From NCBI GenBank assembly GCA_963693095.2, contig OY843768.1:352001-416000 (forward strand): 64,000 nucleotides of DNA, written 5' to 3'. Both the position numbers and the translations under genes were made by a program. This DNA is from Cenarchaeum sp. GTDB taxonomy: Archaea; Thermoproteota; Nitrososphaeria; Nitrososphaerales; Nitrosopumilaceae. Below the pieces are notes generated by a model. The model ran no database searches. It worked only from the letters and a program-made list of their open reading frames with translations, and was not told the origin of the DNA. Each line of letters begins with the position of its first letter. Position 1 is the stretch's first letter. Shown here piece by piece: positions 12,001-64,000 of the stretch.

Positions 12001-15000
12001 CACTGCAGAGTTCACCGAGGCCGACACGATAGTGATCACGCTGTCTGAGGAGCTGTCCAACACGAGCTCTGACATAGAGGGCTATACGTATACCGTGATG
12101 GGGGGGAGCACCCCAGTCGCGCTGGCCACGGCTGATCTGTCGGCCAACCCGCCGGTAAGGCCAGTCGTCTACGATGCGGTCAAGCGCACGATCACGCTCA
12201 CGCTGGCCGCCGACACGGCTCGGGGTGTGCCGCACACGGTGTCGTTGCCCTCCACGCTGGCCGACCCTGCGGGCAACACGGTCTCGCAGGCCTCGGTGAG
12301 TGTGACACTGCCCCAGTTCGCGGCGTCGACGCAGAGCCAGACTACGACGCTCGTCACGTTTTATGAGAGCGCGCTAGGCGGCACGCTCGACACGGACGAC
12401 TGGACGGTCACCGAGAACGACGCGACCAACGCCGCAGACAACGTGGCGCTGGGCATATCGCGCATCGCGACGATGACTGCCGACGTGCTGAGCCAGGTCA
12501 CCGCGACGCCCGAGAGCACGACGGGGGTCGTTGCAGTCACGCCGACGATCCCGTCAACCCCCGCCGTCACGCAGCTCCTCATCACGCACGACCCGCTCTC
12601 CTCGACGGCGGCCACGCCGGCCGTCTCGTACACGCCAGGAGCGCTGACCGTGGCCAGCACCCCCGTGCGCTCCAACAACGTCGAGGCTGCCGACGGCGCG
12701 CCGCCGACGTTCACGGCGCGCACGGTCACGACGTCGACGATCGCCGTCACGTTCAGCGAGCCGATACGCAACACGTTTAGTGGCGAGGGCTTCCTGGACG
12801 ATGATCACTGGACGGTGGACGGCACCATGCCGGGCATACCCAGCGCTGCCAACTTTACGCGGGCCGGCCTCCTGGCGCCAGAAGGCAGCGAGGCGTACAC
12901 GGTATTTACGCTCACAGTGCGCACTCCCTTTGGCGTGGACGCCACGCCCACGGTCACCTATGTTCGCCCCAACTCGAACTACCTCGCCGACGCGCTGGAG
13001 GAAGGCTCCGGCGACGTTGACGGGAACAACCCTATTCCGAACGGCGCGTCGACGACCGCCGCCGACGGCATAGCCGGCCCTGCGCCCCCGTTCGAGGCCT
13101 CGACTGCCAGCCTCACGACGACGCTCGTCAACTTTGACGGCGGCGTGCTCGCCGGCACGCTCGACGTGGACGACTGGACTGTCACCGACAACGACACGAC
13201 AGACTCTGTGGACGTGGTTCGTGCGATATCGAGCATTGCGACTGCAGCCAGCGGCGTCGCGACGACGACTGTGGCGACGCCGGAGACCTCTGCGGGAGCC
13301 GACGATGCGGTAACGCCTACGATCCAGTCGAGCTCCGCCGTCACGCAGCTCCTCATCACGCACGATGCGCTCTCCTCGGCGGCTGCCACGCCGGCCGTCG
13401 CGTACGCCGCCGGCGACCTGACCGAGGGCGGCACCACCGTCGCCAGCGGCGGAGAGGACGCCTCTGACGGCGTGCCACCTACGTTCAGTGCGGAGCTCAC
13501 GGGGGCGGGCACGGTGAGGATAGCGTTCTCCGAGCCGGTCACCGGCACGACGAGGGCCCCAGAGTGGGCGTTTGACGGCGCGTCAGACGGCATGCTGTTA
13601 GAGCGCCTCCTCGACACGGCCGTGTCGACGGACCTCGAGCTGCGCGGCGCCGACGAGCTCTTTATCACGCTCGCCTCCCCGCGAGCGCGCACGGACCTGG
13701 GCGACGGCGCCGGCGGCACACTGGACGCCGGTGACGTCACGTACACCCCCCGTGCCACGGACGCGCTGGAGGACGCCGCGCTCAACGGGTTCGGCACGGC
13801 CGGCTCCCCCGTCGAGGCCACGGCGCTGGCCGACAAGGCGCAGCCGACATTTGACGCTGTGATCACCTCGCAGACCTCGATAACGGTGACCTTTAGGGAG
13901 GCCGTTACCCGCGTGGTGACGTTCGGGGAGGAGGGCGGCTGGCTTGTGGGCGTGGGCATCGGTTTCCCGGGCGTCGCGAGCCCTGTGGTCTCCTCGGCCG
14001 CCTTTGTCGCCCCGTCCACCTACACGCTCGGGCTCGCGACCCCGGGCGCGATCCCCGGCACGGGGTATGTGGTCAGCGCGGCTGACATGATCTACGACTT
14101 TGCCTCCATGGCGCCCAACCAGATCAGGGGCGATGCAACGGCGACGGCGACGTACGCGCCGCCGACGATAACGGGCGCCACGCTTGAGACGTCGACGACG
14201 CTCACCGTGACCTTCTCGGATGATCTTGACGGCAGCACGGCGGCGTCCGAGTGGACAGTCGACGACACGCCAGTAGAGTCCGTCTCTGCCGCCGGCGCGT
14301 CGACGGCCGGCGGCACGGTCACGATAAGCGGTGCGGTCTCCATGATCACGCTCACGCTCGCGTCTGCCAACGCGCAGGACGACGACGCGACGCCGGACGT
14401 GGCGTACACGCCCGCCGCCGGCGCGCTGCGCGACTCCGACGACGTCGCCCTGTTCCCGACTGGCGCCAGCCCCGTCACGGCAGCCGACAAGATCGCCCCG
14501 TCCATCGACTCGGCCATGTTCACGGCGCCCAACAAGATATCCGTCACGTTCACCGAGCCGGTGACAGGGGACACGTCGACGTCGGCGCCGGACGGAACCG
14601 GCTGGTCGCTAACCGCCACGGTGGGCACGCTTAACGTGCAGAGCGCCGCGCACTCGGGCAGCACGTCAACGCTCACGCTGGACGGCAACGCCGTGGACGG
14701 CAGGATGTACACGGTAAACGCGGCAGACGGGATCAGGGACACGTCCACGGCCCGCAACCCGATAGGCGCCGGCGAGACCGAGTCGGTGGAGTACGACGAG
14801 TCGCTGGTGGACACCACTCCGCCGACGTTCACGGCGCGCGTGTACAACAGCACGCATGTCGCAGTAAGGTTCAGCGAGCCCATCCAGGGCACGACGGTCG
14901 TGGCAGACTGGGCGATCACCCTGGCGGGCACGACAGTGCCGACGCTGACCGCGGCAAATCCAGATAAAGGCGCGACCAATACTGCTGGATCCAGATTCAA

Positions 15001-45611: not shown

Positions 45612-47127
45612 GTATGAGGTCAGCACCTAGACCGCACGCATGACCTCGGCCACCACGCTCTTCCCCATGGCCCTCCACGTCAGGAAGCACGTCAGGAGGA
45701 TAGACATGCGCCTGGCAGCCGCCGCGCCCCCCTTGAGCTGGCCGCTCACCTTGCGGCGCACGACCACGTCGCGCAGCTCCCTCTCGGCGGCGTTGTTCGT
45801 GGGCGCGACGCCGGCATGCTCGCAGAACGCGAACATCTGCGGCGCGGCGCGGCGGAGCCTGGCCACGGCGCGCGCCAGCTCCCCGCCCCCGCCGTCGTCG
45901 TGCCGGTCCAGCAGCGACGCCAGGGCATCCTCCATCGCGCGCCGCAGCTCCGCGCACGGCGCGACGGCGGTGTCCCTGGCGGCGCGGTACAGCGAGAGGA
46001 GGTCGGCGTGCAGCCCTGGCAGCGCCCCGCCGTGCATCCTGGCGGCGTGCTCCACGGCGCGCAGCTCGTGCGCCCAGCACCGCTGGTGCATCCCGCCGAC
46101 GTCGAACCTGTTGTACGCCGGGTGCCCGTCGGTTATCGCCACGCCGACGAACCCCGGCAGGATCACGTCGAGCACCTGCGCTCCCCTGCTCTTGCTGAAC
46201 TCCACCCCGACATGGCACCCGTGCTTCGCCGCCCACGTCCAGTGGCCCTCGCCGGAGCTTGGGAACCCCGTCTCGTCCACGTGCACGTGCGGCGCCCTCC
46301 TGATCTCCGCCCATATGCGCTTGGCCTCCGGCTCCAGCGCGTCGGCCACGTTGTCCCTTATGCGCAGCACGGTCGCCTTTGACATGGAGACCCCGTGCAC
46401 TTCCAGCATCTCGGCGGCGATCCGCTCGACGGGCGTCCGAGTGCGCACGGACGACGCCACGGTGCCGACGAGCCTCCTGCCGTAGGACCCGCGGGCCGGC
46501 AGGCCGGAGTCCGCCCGCCGCGTCGCGCCGCAGTCCGCGCACGTGGCCGACTCGACATAGTGCCGCGTCTCGACCGGCCGCGGGGGCGGGATCTCGATGA
46601 TGTCGCGCACCGCCGTCGTGACCTCCATGCGGCCGCCGCACTCGCACGGCCTGCGGTCGACGCGGTGCCGCTCCGTCTCGGTCGGCGCGTGCCGGCGCGA
46701 CGTGCCGCGGTGGCCGGGCCTGCCGCCGGGCGTCCCGTGCGGCGGGAGCTCGCCGCGCTCCCTCGCCCGCCGCAGCTCGCGCTTCCTCCTCTTGTGCTCC
46801 AGCGACGCCGACGACGGCGGCGTGTTGGCGTTCTGGTAGTACGACAGCGTGCGCCTCATCGTCTCGACCTCCGCCTCCAGCTCGGCGATCCTCTCGTCCC
46901 TCGACCTGACGGTGTCCTCCAGCCCGTGGACCTCCCCCTGCAGCTCCTTGACCTGCAGGCCCAGCGCCCTGGAGATCCCCTCGACGGCCCTGAGCCTGCC
47001 ATTGAGCTGTGCCAGCGTGCTGTCCTGCTTCCCGCGACCCTTCACGCCCCGGCGCGCGCCCCAGCGGTAAATGGATCGGTAGGATCGCGCCTATTTGACC
47101 AAATGGGCAGGGGTGCTGACCTCATAC
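45612..47127 (-). mobile_element. IS66-family insertion sequence (single-ORF, ISBst12-like organisation), 1516 bp
   Basis: Perfect 16-bp TIRs GTATGAGGTCAGCACC (45612-45627) / GGTGCTGACCTCATAC (47112-47127). 8-bp TSD CTCCAAAA at 45604-45611 and 47128-47135. Confidence 0.96.
45627..47045 (-). CDS. IS66-family DDE transposase
   Basis: Coiled coil + NTPPSS, GGRPGHRG, zinc motifs CECG/CADCG, HVDETG, ITDGHPAY, HQRCWAH, TNNAAERELR. Confidence 0.96.
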   Translation of the reverse strand: MKGRGKQDSTLAQLNGRLRAVEGISRALGLQVKELQGEVHGLEDTVRSRDERIAELEAEVETMRRTLSYYQNANTPPSSASLEHKRRKRELRRARERGELPPHGTPGGRPGHRGTSRRHAPTETERHRVDRRPCECGGRMEVTTAVRDIIEIPPPRPVETRHYVESATCADCGATRRADSGLPARGSYGRRLVGTVASSVRTRTPVERIAAEMLEVHGVSMSKATVLRIRDNVADALEPEAKRIWAEIRRAPHVHVDETGFPSSGEGHWTWAAKHGCHVGVEFSKSRGAQVLDVILPGFVGVAITDGHPAYNRFDVGGMHQRCWAHELRAVEHAARMHGGALPGLHADLLSLYRAARDTAVAPCAELRRAMEDALASLLDRHDDGGGGELARAVARLRRAAPQMFAFCEHAGVAPTNNAAERELRDVVVRRKVSGQLKGGAAAARRMSILLTCFLTWRAMGKSVVAEVMRAV

Positions 47128-60942: not shown

Positions 60943-61965
60943 TTGCCATTGGCAAGGGCGAAAAAGGTCACAAAACGGCGCAAGGGCGCCACGCGCAGAA
61001 AGACGACTGCGCGTCGCAGGCCAGTACGCCGTGGGGCCACGACGCGCCGCCGGAGCGCCACTCGCAAAAAGGCGACTACCAGGAGATCAGCACGCCGTGG
61101 GGCCACGACGCGCCGCCGGAGCGCCACTCGCAAAAAGGCGACTAGGGGCAGCAGTGTGGCCAAAAAAAGGTATCGTTCGGCCATAGCGTACCGCCTCCGC
61201 GAGATTCCGATAAAGCAGGTCAAGGTGTGGCGTGACGCGCAGGCGCGCAAGCTAGACAGGGACGGCATTGCCGAGCTCGCAAAGTCGATAAAGCATGACG
61301 GCCTGCAAAACCCGCCAATGGTCCAAAAGAGCGGACCTGGCCAGTACCTGCTAATGTCCGGCCAGCGCAGGCTCGCGGCCCTAAAGAGGCTGCGCGCCAA
61401 GAATATACCCGCACTCGTGCTCACAAAACAGTCCGCATATGACCTCGGTGACGCAAAGGCCGCATCAGTAGTCGAGAACCTTCACCGCAGGGGCATGAAG
61501 TCTCGCGACATGGCGTCTGCGTGCGCGTTTCTCGCCGAGCGCATGCCAAAGACGCGTGCGGCGCAGATGCTTGGAATATCAATGCCGACGTTCAAAAAGC
61601 TCCACGGGTTCGCCGGCGTGCCCGAGGCGCTAAAGTCACTCACGCCAAAGACGATCTCGCGTGATGACGCCACAAACCTGTACCAGGTCGCGCCAAGCAT
61701 CGCCAATGCGATAAAGATCGCCGAAAAGATCACAAAGCTTGACGCGCCAACACGGCGCCGATACATAAAGGCGTACGCGCGCAGTCCGCGCTCCTCGCAC
61801 AAGACGCTCCTAAAGCGCGCGCGCGTCATGGTTGCGCAGCAAAAGGTTCGCCTACAGCTCACAAAGGGCAACGCGCGCAAGCTTGCAACGCGCTCAAGAC
61901 GCCAGGATGTGACTCCTGACGAGCTCGCCGGCGAGATTGTAGCAAAGTGGCTTCGTTCCCACTAG
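60943..61965 (+). CDS. ParB/Srx-domain protein with R/K/A/T-rich N-terminal tail
   Basis: ELAKSIKHDGLQNPP, SGQRRLAA, VVENLHR, then an HTH-like segment. Start may be TTG 60949. Confidence 0.88.
   Translation: MPLARAKKVTKRRKGATRRKTTARRRPVRRGATTRRRSATRKKATTRRSARRGATTRRRSATRKKATRGSSVAKKRYRSAIAYRLREIPIKQVKVWRDAQARKLDRDGIAELAKSIKHDGLQNPPMVQKSGPGQYLLMSGQRRLAALKRLRAKNIPALVLTKQSAYDLGDAKAASVVENLHRRGMKSRDMASACAFLAERMPKTRAAQMLGISMPTFKKLHGFAGVPEALKSLTPKTISRDDATNLYQVAPSIANAIKIAEKITKLDAPTRRRYIKAYARSPRSSHKTLLKRARVMVAQQKVRLQLTKGNARKLATRSRRQDVTPDELAGEIVAKWLRSH
61026..61144 (+). repeat. Tandem duplication: 53-bp identical core, 66-bp period
   Basis: ACGCCGTGGGGCCACGACGCGCCGCCGGAGCGCCACTCGCAAAAAGGCGACTA at 61026 and 61092. 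Confidence 0.95.
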
Positions 61966-62312
61966 AATATACCGAACTTGCTAGTCTCCATCTCTTCCTT
62001 TATCGCAAGCTTGAAGCGCGGGGACTTCTTGCCTACCCTGGTCTCTAGGAGCTTTAGGAACTTTTTGTCGGTTCCCTTTCCCTTTAGCGACTCAAAGTCG
62101 GCTCCCATCTGCCCGGCCACCCTGTGGACCATGTTCCTCGTGACGCTAACGACGAAAAAGTGCCATCCGAACGCAAACTCCGAGTCTGTTATGCGAAACT
62201 CGTCCTTTGCGTGGACCGACTCCTCTAGCATGCCTAGCTCTAGTCGCAGCGCCTTGCTCGTGGCGTCATAGTCGACTGCCGAGACGTTGATGTTCAGCGC
62301 GTCGTGCATCAC
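61962..62312 (-). CDS. Hypothetical protein
   Basis: 116 aa, native codon usage, TTTAA box upstream. Confidence 0.75.
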   Translation of the reverse strand: MMHDALNINVSAVDYDATSKALRLELGMLEESVHAKDEFRITDSEFAFGWHFFVVSVTRNMVHRVAGQMGADFESLKGKGTDKKFLKLLETRVGKKSPRFKLAIKEEMETSKFGIF

Positions 62313-62560
62313 GCAGGCGCGCCAAACGCGGCATTAAATTGCTTTGTGGGCATGCCTGCAGTGGCACGCCTGCCGCAGGCGCCGTGTGGACTCGGGCGGC
62401 AGGGGTATGGGCTCAGCACCAGCGGCTCATTTGGTCAGGTGGGCGCGATCTGGTCGTTCTACTAGTCGTGGGGGCACCTGCATGAGAATGAGCTGGAGTG
62501 ATGTCCGCCTTATATTGTGGGGGCTGAACATTTATTAAGTCCGTAGGGTTGTCTTGTCCC

Positions 62561-62710
62561 ATGGAAAACGACGAGTGCTCCAGCACTGAGTCTACGGTTG
62601 AGGCGAACCCTGAAAAACCTGAACGGCTAACGTTCGGCAAGATGAGGTTTGCAAGTGCCAAGGATCGTGCACGTCTTGCAGAACGCGCGGATAATAAATC
62701 AGGGTCGTAG
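62561..62710 (+). CDS. 49-aa hydrophilic small ORF
   Basis: MENDECSSTESTVEANPEKPERLTFGKMRFASAKDRARLAERADNKSGS*. TTTATTAA at 62531-62538. Ends 2 bp before the next ATG. Confidence 0.5.
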   Translation: MENDECSSTESTVEANPEKPERLTFGKMRFASAKDRARLAERADNKSGS

Positions 62711-62712
62711 CA

Positions 62713-63345
62713 ATGGCTTCCCAGGGTGATCCGAATAACGTGGAACGTTCCACATCTAGTGTTGTTCACCCATCTTTTTTCGAAGTGCTCTGGAGGGTCG
62801 TAGCGTTGGCTCAGTGGAATGTGGAGCGCATCAACGACAAGGCAAAGGCCACTCTTGGAACAGGGGCGACGACTTTGTCCATCCTTGTTATCGCGATAGT
62901 GGGCTTTGCGACAATTCTTGATGGGGATCTTTCCAATCTTGCCCCGCTTACCCAATTGCCCACGTGGGCGCAGAACCTTATCTATGGTTGCGTATTTTTG
63001 GGGGTGGTTTTTATCCTGCTGTCTGTAGGATTTGCTACTATGTCCCTACGTACATTTCAGGTATATGATCCTGTGGTCTATGAGGATTTTACAAAACATA
63101 GAACCGGTGATGGAGAAATTGATATCGACATTTTGAAAAAATATTCTGCGATGCCCCCTAATGTCGTTTCTGCAATACAAGAGGCGTATATTCGTAGATT
63201 GCGCGAGCTGGGAGCGAATATAGATAACATATCTCGACACCTTCACCGTAGCCAACGGCTCTTGCTCTTTGGCCTTACGGCAATTGGCACTTCACTACTG
63301 CTGATCTTGGGAAACCTGCTCGCAATTTCAATTTTTGGAACATGA
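62713..63345 (+). CDS. Low-GC three-TM membrane protein, Pycsar-effector (PycTM/DUF5706)-like topology
   Basis: INDKAKATLG followed by two TM helices, a soluble loop and a C-terminal TM. Visibly AT-rich. Family call tentative. Confidence 0.7.
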   Translation: MASQGDPNNVERSTSSVVHPSFFEVLWRVVALAQWNVERINDKAKATLGTGATTLSILVIAIVGFATILDGDLSNLAPLTQLPTWAQNLIYGCVFLGVVFILLSVGFATMSLRTFQVYDPVVYEDFTKHRTGDGEIDIDILKKYSAMPPNVVSAIQEAYIRRLRELGANIDNISRHLHRSQRLLLFGLTAIGTSLLLILGNLLAISIFGT

Positions 63346-63606
63346 TCGCCTTACCTGTGCGGCCTCTTGATGTCGACGCTTTCAGCATGCGACACACGGG
63401 ATTCTGGTGCGCTCTGCCCTGTCGCCTCTGGCAGGATGCCTGCTGATCTCGCGCGCATGGGCGGACTCTGCCGTGCTAGAGCCGGCATCACCATGGCACG
63501 AATCGGAGAGATTGCGCCTATCTGACCAAAAAGCGCATGGATGCCCTGCCCCGTGCCCACGCATGGCCGGAAAGGGATTAATACGCCATGCCCGTGCGCC
63601 TGACGC

Positions 63607-64000
63607 ATGGCGCCTGTCTATGAGGATCCCTTCATCAAGATCGCCACGATGATAGGGGGCGACGAGTACCACAAGGTGGCCCGCTCGCTCCTAAAGTCGA
63701 TCGACGCGACTGACGAGGAGATTGCGAGCTCGACTGGCCTGAGGATAAACCTTGTCCGCAAGATACTCTATGACCTATTTGGCAAGTCGCTCATAAGCGG
63801 CGTGCGCGTCAAGGACGAAAAGAAGGGCTGGTTTGTCTACCGCTGGCGCTCTAGGCGCGAGGAGGTCGAGGGGTTCATCGAGAACCAAAAGAAAAAGATA
63901 GTCGACCGCCTCGAGCACCGCTTTTCATACGAGAGCGGATCAGAGTTTTACCACTGTGGCAACGAGGACTGCCGCAGGGTGACCTTTGAGGACGCGCTGG
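63607..64000 (+). CDS. tfe: Transcription factor E alpha (3'-partial)
   Basis: MAPVYEDPF...ATDEEIASSTGLRINLVRKILYDL...KGWFVYRW...FYHCGNEDC zinc ribbon. ATTAATA upstream. Confidence 0.93.
   Translation, partial: MAPVYEDPFIKIATMIGGDEYHKVARSLLKSIDATDEEIASSTGLRINLVRKILYDLFGKSLISGVRVKDEKKGWFVYRWRSRREEVEGFIENQKKKIVDRLEHRFSYESGSEFYHCGNEDCRRVTFEDAL

Follow-up and report, generated by a model that had tools for sequence, protein, structure and literature searches.

Tn10 and Tn9 are classical composite transposons, and mobile insertion cassettes of the MIC231 type hold passenger genes, and no transposase, between a single pair of repeats of insertion sequence (IS) type. Tn5 is likewise drawn as a classical composite transposon in a 2024 review of prokaryotic MITEs (miniature transposable elements with inverted repeats), which in its accessible part lists few archaeal hosts (PMC10969869, Figure 1 legend for Tn5). 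In Acinetobacter, according to the accessible part of the paper concerned, a 439-bp MITE pair flanks class 1 integrons, a MITE-297 pair brackets a 76-kb mer region, and such pairs flanking passenger DNA are described as 'comparable to a composite transposon' (PMC6382973). Here we analyze a two-gene cassette that lies between two inverted MITE copies, A and B, in a 64,000-nt window (the whole stretch of DNA analyzed; bases 352,001-416,000 of the main contig) of the Cenarchaeum sp. genome. The genome (2.0 Mb; guanine-plus-cytosine (GC) content 60.4%) encodes archaeal AmoA, and the host is therefore an ammonia-oxidising archaeon. We read the islet as a fossil MITE-flanked composite transposon, and put the probability of this reading at about one half. 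Below, G000 denotes this genome and G001-G004 the compared genomes of the same genus, G004 being the complete genome of a sister species.

Like the Acinetobacter composites, as far as the accessible part of that paper sets them out, the window unit would have relied on a transposase supplied in trans. It differs from them in its host, an ammonia-oxidising archaeon, and in its parent, an IS66-family element with a single open reading frame (ORF). Its arms are unequal or decayed, its cargo is one small membrane-protein operon and not resistance genes, and the window copy keeps neither a target duplication nor an empty site. With Tn5, Tn10 and Tn9 such composites would share the joint use of the outermost repeats of two flanking elements, a duplication of the length typical of the flanking IS, and arms that are inverted (the window copy) or direct (a second copy, at 237 kb of the same genome). 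Unlike in those transposons, the flanking elements here encode no transposase. Passengers placed between IS-type terminal repeats without a transposase also recall the MIC231 type, from which the locus differs in that either arm is a whole small element that has an inner repeat of its own.

The IS66 parent, its MITEs and the two ends of the islet

The islet and the resident IS element comprise the following features (window coordinates; aa, amino acids; GC3, GC content at third codon positions).

62405-62517, forward strand: MITE A, a decayed, near full-length copy of an IS66-derived MITE of ~113 bp
62531-62540, forward strand: AT-rich box ATTTATTAAG, ~20 nt upstream of the ATG of the small ORF (read from the sequence)
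62561-62710, forward strand: small ORF, 49 aa, with 2 nt between its stop and the cargo ATG
62713-63345, forward strand: cargo gene, 210 aa, GC 0.47, GC3 0.46
63464-63556, reverse strand: MITE B, an incomplete and much decayed member of the same MITE family, inverted relative to A
45612-47127, reverse strand: IS66-family insertion sequence, 1516 bp, the autonomous partner
45627-47045: transposase ORF of the resident IS66, 472 aa, a single ORF

Initially, the locus had been described from its letters alone as an islet bracketed by relics of the left end of an intact IS66, with the transposase replaced by passenger genes (hereafter, the preliminary description). The reference element is indeed intact. 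It has perfect terminal inverted repeats (16/16 bp, GTATGAGGTCAGCACC) and an 8-bp target duplication, CTCCAAAA, at both edges, and its 472-aa transposase contains the DDE domain of IS66 type (Pfam PF03050, E 7.8e-37; 127.7 bits, cut-off 23.1). The zf-IS66 domain scored 25.2 bits, just below the cut-off of 27.3. Canonical IS66 elements have the accessory ORFs tnpA and tnpB, and single-ORF members are a recognised subgroup. No accessory tnpA or tnpB ORF was found in 45612-47127, where the 472-aa ORF alone fits as a long ORF; presumably the resident element belongs to the single-ORF subgroup. Four intact full-length copies of the transposase gene are present in G000, with 95.6-100% aa identity. 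The copy at 45612-47127 is missing from the syntenic site of G004, where the alignment blocks abut at genome positions 397,611 and 399,129 with a 7-nt overlap in G004. This overlap pattern indicates an empty site in G004 and a recent insertion of the IS, after the split from G004; the IS66 family has therefore been active recently. The transposase gene has a GC3 of 0.96, compared with 0.71-0.80 in the neighbouring core genes. Elsewhere in the window, positions 14065-14080 match the IS terminal repeat at 13/16 (GTATGTGGTCAGCGCG).

When the genome was searched with nhmmer, 58 matches at E <= 10 were obtained with the 100-nt left (transposase-proximal) IS end and 23 with the other end. Printing the flanks of these matches revealed that most 'solo left ends' are in fact whole elements, ~113 bp long. 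In each, the first ~88 nt of the IS left end, the start-codon region included, run directly into the terminal ~23 nt repeated in inverse orientation; judged by this structure, these elements are a MITE family derived from the resident IS66. A family profile of 113 positions was built from 18 clear copies. On the main contig, IS66-derived loci that do not overlap number 70 (E <= 0.01), and 23 MITEs are near full-length. An 8-bp duplication matching at 7/8 or better is retained by 5/23 single MITE copies (random pairs, 1.7%). A larger derivative, 328 bp long, is an internal-deletion form in which IS positions 1-262 are joined to 1446-1514. The profile has 32 matches in G004; MITEs of this family were not found in G001-G003, whose assemblies are fragmented. 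The smallest member seen is 57 bp long (C1:1,328,037-1,328,093), two terminal repeats with ~25 nt between them. Two partial matches of the same orientation (profile positions 5-85 and 36-113), at C1:225,889-225,969 and 227,623-227,702, are separated by 1.65 kb of GC-rich DNA (0.67); an insertion may have split a single copy, or there may be two copies, both truncated.

Both ends of the islet belong to this family. The similarity of copy A to the transposase-proximal IS end, noted in the preliminary description, is real (38/47 columns with one gap, over 62405-62450), and in the genome-wide search A was matched by the 100-nt IS end with E 0.0026 (18.9 bits), over 62406-62490. The MITE profile, searched on the same scale, gives E 1.5e-12 and 48 bits over positions 2-101 of 113, with an envelope reaching 62515. 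By these scores the ~113-bp MITE is a much closer fit to A than the IS is. Its outer repeat, GTATGGGCTCAGCACC, is conserved at 14/16, and its inner repeat has decayed to about 6/12 as read from the sequence. Copy B, in the opposite orientation, also stands: GATTGCGCCTATCTGACCAAA matches the IS end at 19/21. The IS end alone detects B with E 0.14 and the MITE profile with E 0.0027 (positions 14-86 at 63544-63473, envelope 63556-63464). On these comparisons the identity of both ends as MITE copies of the IS66-derived family is firm. A and B are inverted, with their left ends outermost, and face inward around the low-GC genes; the GC content between them is 0.50 against 0.604 for the genome, which bears out the low-GC stretch reported earlier. 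MITE A folds as a long hairpin (z -1.9), as any MITE would, which is uninformative, and Rfam has no match over 61500-64000.

These results bear on the explanation put forward initially, according to which a single IS66 had its transposase swapped for passengers and was left with two left-end repeats, as a cargo-carrying MITE or mobile insertion cassette that can still be mobilised. The similarity of A to the IS does extend to the transposase start codon, the ATG at 62488 being aligned with the transposase GTG, and both outer ends are of the left-end type. The alignment thus stood. What ends the similarity, however, is the inner inverted repeat of a MITE and no gene swap: the ATG is a family feature, a vestigial start codon present in the MITE consensus (CATGAAC), and A runs past it into the inner repeat, to profile position 101/113 in G000 and 112/113 in G004. 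The profile therefore contradicts the swap. A, which has an inner end of its own, is a MITE close to complete, and B is a separate MITE relic; moreover, an IS has one left end, and two left ends would need two source copies. In addition, B has lost its terminal repeat (about 6/16 by eye) and the locus is fixed in two species. We consider a gutted, still mobile IS66 highly improbable. The IRR-like sequence TGCTGATCTC reported at 63441 is lost as a clue as well, because it matches the 16-nt terminal repeat at 10/16 only and 118 such matches occur in the 64-kb window in that orientation (~1.8 per kb), as expected by chance.

The cargo family and a sister composite at 237 kb

The AT-rich box that follows MITE A is a putative archaeal TATA-like promoter of the cassette; a box of the TTTATTAAG type also follows other MITE copies. 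The small ORF has 71% aa identity to its G004 counterpart (ratio of nonsynonymous to synonymous divergence, dN/dS, 0.48) and no match in Pfam or PADLOC. The 210-aa cargo protein is modelled as all-helical, with three long hydrophobic helices (mean predicted local distance difference test score 73.8), and on this model is a three-helix membrane protein of no named family. It has no Pfam match under E 0.01 and no PADLOC match, and its model matched no solved structure at E <= 0.001. A word-index search found two close relatives, and a profile search of 1.84 billion representative proteins found 153 at E <= 0.001; the 20 of these 153 that were scanned share no named or consistent Pfam domain. A scan of genome_contigs for cargo relatives found nothing. 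G000 has six copies of the family, one of them weak (E 0.1). Among 41 related genomes the family was found in this genus alone, with 12 matches in G001, 8 in G002, 3 in G004 and none in G003. The cargo has 64% aa identity to its G004 orthologue with a dN/dS of 0.33, and is therefore a real gene under purifying selection.

The window unit cannot be mobile now, and arguments for its origin must come from other loci. One such case is a paralogue of the cargo at 237 kb (genome coordinates).

237,239-237,566: 328-bp MITE, the left arm of the 237-kb composite
237,826-238,290: cargo paralogue, 189 aa
238,538-238,650: 113-bp MITE, the right arm, in the same orientation as the 328-bp MITE

At the two sides of this block (237,239-238,650) lie the direct repeats GGCGCCCCG and GGCGCCCTG, 8-9 bp long with one mismatch (7/8 or 8/9; 2.7% of random pairs equal 7/8 with the same slack). 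The left flank ends GGGGGCGCCCCG and the right flank begins GGCGCCCTGCAG, and G004 reads GGGGGCGCCTGCAG once. G004 is aligned at 96% on both sides up to the junction and the 1.4-kb block is missing, which makes a clean empty site. Neither MITE has a separate target duplication around it. The cargo begins directly behind the inner end of the 328-bp MITE, and its DNA identity to the other copies in the genome is at most 70-76%; it is therefore no recent local duplicate. Unit transposition of a MITE-gene-MITE composite is well supported at this site, and a precise deletion in G004 is a less likely alternative. It is thus well supported that MITE pairs of the IS66-derived family have moved a gene of the cargo's own family. 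From the 237-kb structure we infer that outermost repeats belonging to two different small elements serve as the substrate of the IS66 transposase.

The flanks of the paralogues follow an all-or-none pattern. An IS66-derived element lies within 700 bp on both sides of 3/6 paralogues in G000, on one side only of none, and on neither side of three. A random interval is flanked on both sides with a frequency of 0.45%, which gives P of about 2e-6 for a count that includes the window locus itself; without it the count is 2/5 and P about 2e-4 (hand calculation from the 0.45% rate). The third flanked paralogue is located as follows.

C1:1,916,057-1,918,033: third paralogue, 213 aa, then a DUF4145 gene (E 3.7e-13)

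It lies between the left terminus of one IS fragment (1,916,382) and the right terminus of another (1,917,764), and G004 has a different 677-nt filling beside the same right-end fragment. By analogy with the 237-kb unit, and given the all-or-none flanking, the window block may have arrived in the same manner, a proposition that we judge to be evenly balanced.

Further blocks bounded by IS66 repeats contain unrelated genes and are either missing from G004 or different there, which adds to the support for a composite origin. A 2.7-kb block at 186,104-188,777 is bounded exactly by IS66 terminal repeats and contains ORFs of 440 and 178 aa, neither with a Pfam family. In G004 its place is taken by 232 other bases, and no target duplication surrounds it; an insertion plus a deletion, or an exchange between elements, may have produced it. 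In a further IS66-repeat-bounded block, 1,673,274-1,675,158, the difference between G000 and G004 begins within 4 nt of the MITE outer end at 1,673,274. The other MITE pairs (at 113 kb, 1328 kb, 1635 kb, 1665 kb and others) have no duplications, and the 1328-kb pair is common to G004. A tandem array at C1:780,400-786,800 consists of five to six units of ~1.19 kb, each with a ~330-bp IS66 deletion derivative with altered termini (GCGGGAATCGGGCATTCC) and a low-GC 186-aa gene without a Pfam family. MITE-gene units seem to amplify in tandem at this locus. A suggested likeness of the 186-aa product to Panacea/SocA-type antitoxins had no Pfam support and was dropped.

Comparison with the sister species

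G004 is collinear with the window (mean identity 92.7% over 150 windows of 250 nt). Its gene order at the locus is a ParB-like gene, the 116-aa gene, MITE A, the small ORF, the cargo orthologue, an extra 194 nt, a weak B and tfe. MITE A of G004 matches profile positions 2-112 (E 6e-16) and differs from that of G000 by 1 mismatch; the counterpart of MITE B is weaker (E 0.002 in a 3.6-kb search). Because the same arrangement occupies the same site in G004, the MITE-cassette-MITE structure predates the split of the two species. The empty site in relatives that had been hoped for was not found, G004 being filled, and neither did this relative turn out to have the cargo without the IS ends, as it carries both.

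The two genomes nevertheless differ strongly within the unit, in the following block.

62579-63596: diverged block between G000 and G004, with a 194-nt indel and an identity of 55-82% per 60 nt

Identity to G004 is 95-100% up to ~62578 and 93-98% again at tfe. The edges of the block are sharp: the left one falls within the small ORF, at a distance of ~65 nt inward from MITE A, and the right one just upstream of the tfe start. The two windows that cover the cargo are the most diverged of all 150. Synonymous divergence (dS) between the two genomes is 0.69 for the cargo, compared with 0.10 for the ParB-like gene, 0.08 for the 116-aa gene and 0.22 for tfe. Since the left edge of the block falls inside the unit, the present difference between the cassettes is no transposition of A..B. 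It has the look of alleles exchanged through homologous recombination, or of a coalescence much further back.

It might thus be argued that the cassette is simply a variable locus whose alleles are swapped by homologous recombination in the conserved flanks, with the MITEs as bystanders. The cargo dS, 3-8 times that of the flanking genes (0.08-0.22) at a dN/dS of 0.33, the sharp block edges and the occurrence in public contigs of two cassette types only, each in conserved flanks, fit such an explanation. However, allele exchange accounts for the present difference between G000 and G004, for which it is compatible with a composite origin, and leaves unaccounted for both the place of the gene between IS66-derived elements and the flanking of 3/6 paralogues. 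As an account of the islet itself we regard it as quite improbable.

The intergenic DNA at 62330-62578, which includes MITE A, differs from G004 at 2/249 positions. This near-invariance, set against a dS of 0.08-0.22 in the adjacent genes and a mean regional identity of 92.7%, has one of two causes: recombination that left a tract here very recently, or strong constraint on a small RNA, a promoter region or a co-opted MITE.

Other relatives have different DNA upstream of tfe: a TPR-like gene in G001 and a helicase gene in G003, while the G002 contig starts 89 nt before tfe. At 12 loci of other genera, the 116-aa gene has neither tfe nor the ParB-like gene within 1.5 kb. Homology to G001 starts at window position 63570, 10-14 nt outside the projected outer end of B (63556/7), which counts in favour of a composite origin. 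Synteny upstream of tfe breaks at the same point, 63567-63606, in three lineages (G000/G004, G001 and G003), and this recurrent rearrangement point sits just outside the tfe promoter box GGGATTAATAC.

The excision or empty-site junctions suggested earlier were not seen in the contigs of four out of 13 public runs, none of which joins across A..B; these data are contigs only, so the absence proves nothing. The cassettes in public contigs are of the G000 and G004 types only. For window positions 62113-63631, one run has a word depth of 838 in the unitig left of the cassette and 405 in the unitig with the G000-type cassette, and its contigs break at 62528-62557. A second cassette type or form may coexist in that sample, contig depths being a poor measure.

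Weight of the evidence and significance

If the islet is a fossil composite, its history could have been the following. An IS66 transposase supplied in trans would have recognised the two outermost terminal repeats of A and B, and the whole A-cassette-B block would have moved into the gap between the conserved 116-aa gene and tfe before the G000/G004 split. Later the element would have died, with the B termini lost and the target duplication gone. The cassette and B would then have diverged or been exchanged by homologous recombination, while MITE A and the neighbouring intergenic DNA stayed nearly unchanged. The proposal that such ends are mobilised in trans, made in the preliminary description, agrees with the four intact transposases and the 237-kb case. 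It fails for the present state of the window unit, which cannot be mobile now because B is without a terminal repeat, there is no duplication and the locus is common to G004.

A number of observations weigh against a composite origin. Neither terminal repeat of B is recognisable, the outer terminus matching by eye at about 6/16. The best target duplication around A..B is 5/8, a value reached by 60% of random pairs. Among 54 family copies, A and B are not mutual nearest relatives (ranks 37 and 48 of 53), and nothing marks them as twin arms. The divergence block begins inside the unit, from which it follows that the two MITEs went separate ways after the split. No empty site between the 116-aa gene and tfe was found in the four genomes of the same genus. 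None of the five best paralogue loci of G001, G002 and G004 (orthologue excluded) has a MITE within 1.5 kb, and the 820-kb paralogue locus of G004 is also without one. Across the genome generally, MITEs cluster in variable, lower-GC regions. Finally, GC3 is 0.43-0.62 in all members of the cargo family, with or without MITEs, against 0.71-0.80 in three core neighbours. As MITE-free copies are also low in GC, this is a family-wide property and is by itself no proof that this copy was imported.

Much of this can be accommodated if A and B are old MITE insertions that arose independently, one on each side of an accessory gene that was resident and evolves fast. The block would then never have moved as a unit, and the bracket would be a by-product of MITEs accumulating where insertions are tolerated. 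Consistent with this explanation, A and B are alike at the family level only, form a pair without a flanking duplication, and lie in DNA of different kinds (A in DNA 99-100% conserved with G004, B in the diverged block). The genome-wide clustering of MITEs in variable, lower-GC regions fits it too, as do the three paralogues without a nearby MITE and the position of A and B just outside promoter-like boxes, which many single copies share. Independent insertions, however, would be expected to leave more one-sided cases than the flanking pattern contains (three on both sides, none one-sided, three on neither), and unit transposition is well supported at 237 kb for the same gene family. There is also no positive evidence for them, because neither A nor B has a duplication of its own (8 bp; A 6/8 and B 5/8 at best, the chance level). 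We regard two independent insertions as a real, if somewhat doubtful, possibility.

A composite origin could be extended further. The three-helix family might be a habitual passenger of IS66-derived MITE pairs, which in the genus would form a gene shuttle, driven in trans by the IS66 transposase, that imports and reshuffles a variable protein of envelope or defence type. MITE A, with 150 nt of adjacent intergenic DNA, would since have been co-opted by the cassette for a regulatory role or as a small RNA, and be kept almost invariant between species. We consider this extension unlikely.

MITE-flanked composites are a known kind of element in bacteria and rarely documented in archaea; the window unit is probably one more member. 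A full-text literature search, limited to the library searched, found no description of MITE-flanked composites in ammonia-oxidising archaea. To our knowledge, the mobile elements of these archaea are poorly catalogued. This genome offers a worked example, with an autonomous IS66-family parent, its 113-bp and 328-bp derivatives and a gene-carrying pair that has both a duplication and an empty site. The idea that MITE pairs import genes in these archaea thereby becomes a testable mechanism. The window copy would represent a later stage, in which the element is dead and its cargo lives on as a fast-diverging locus.

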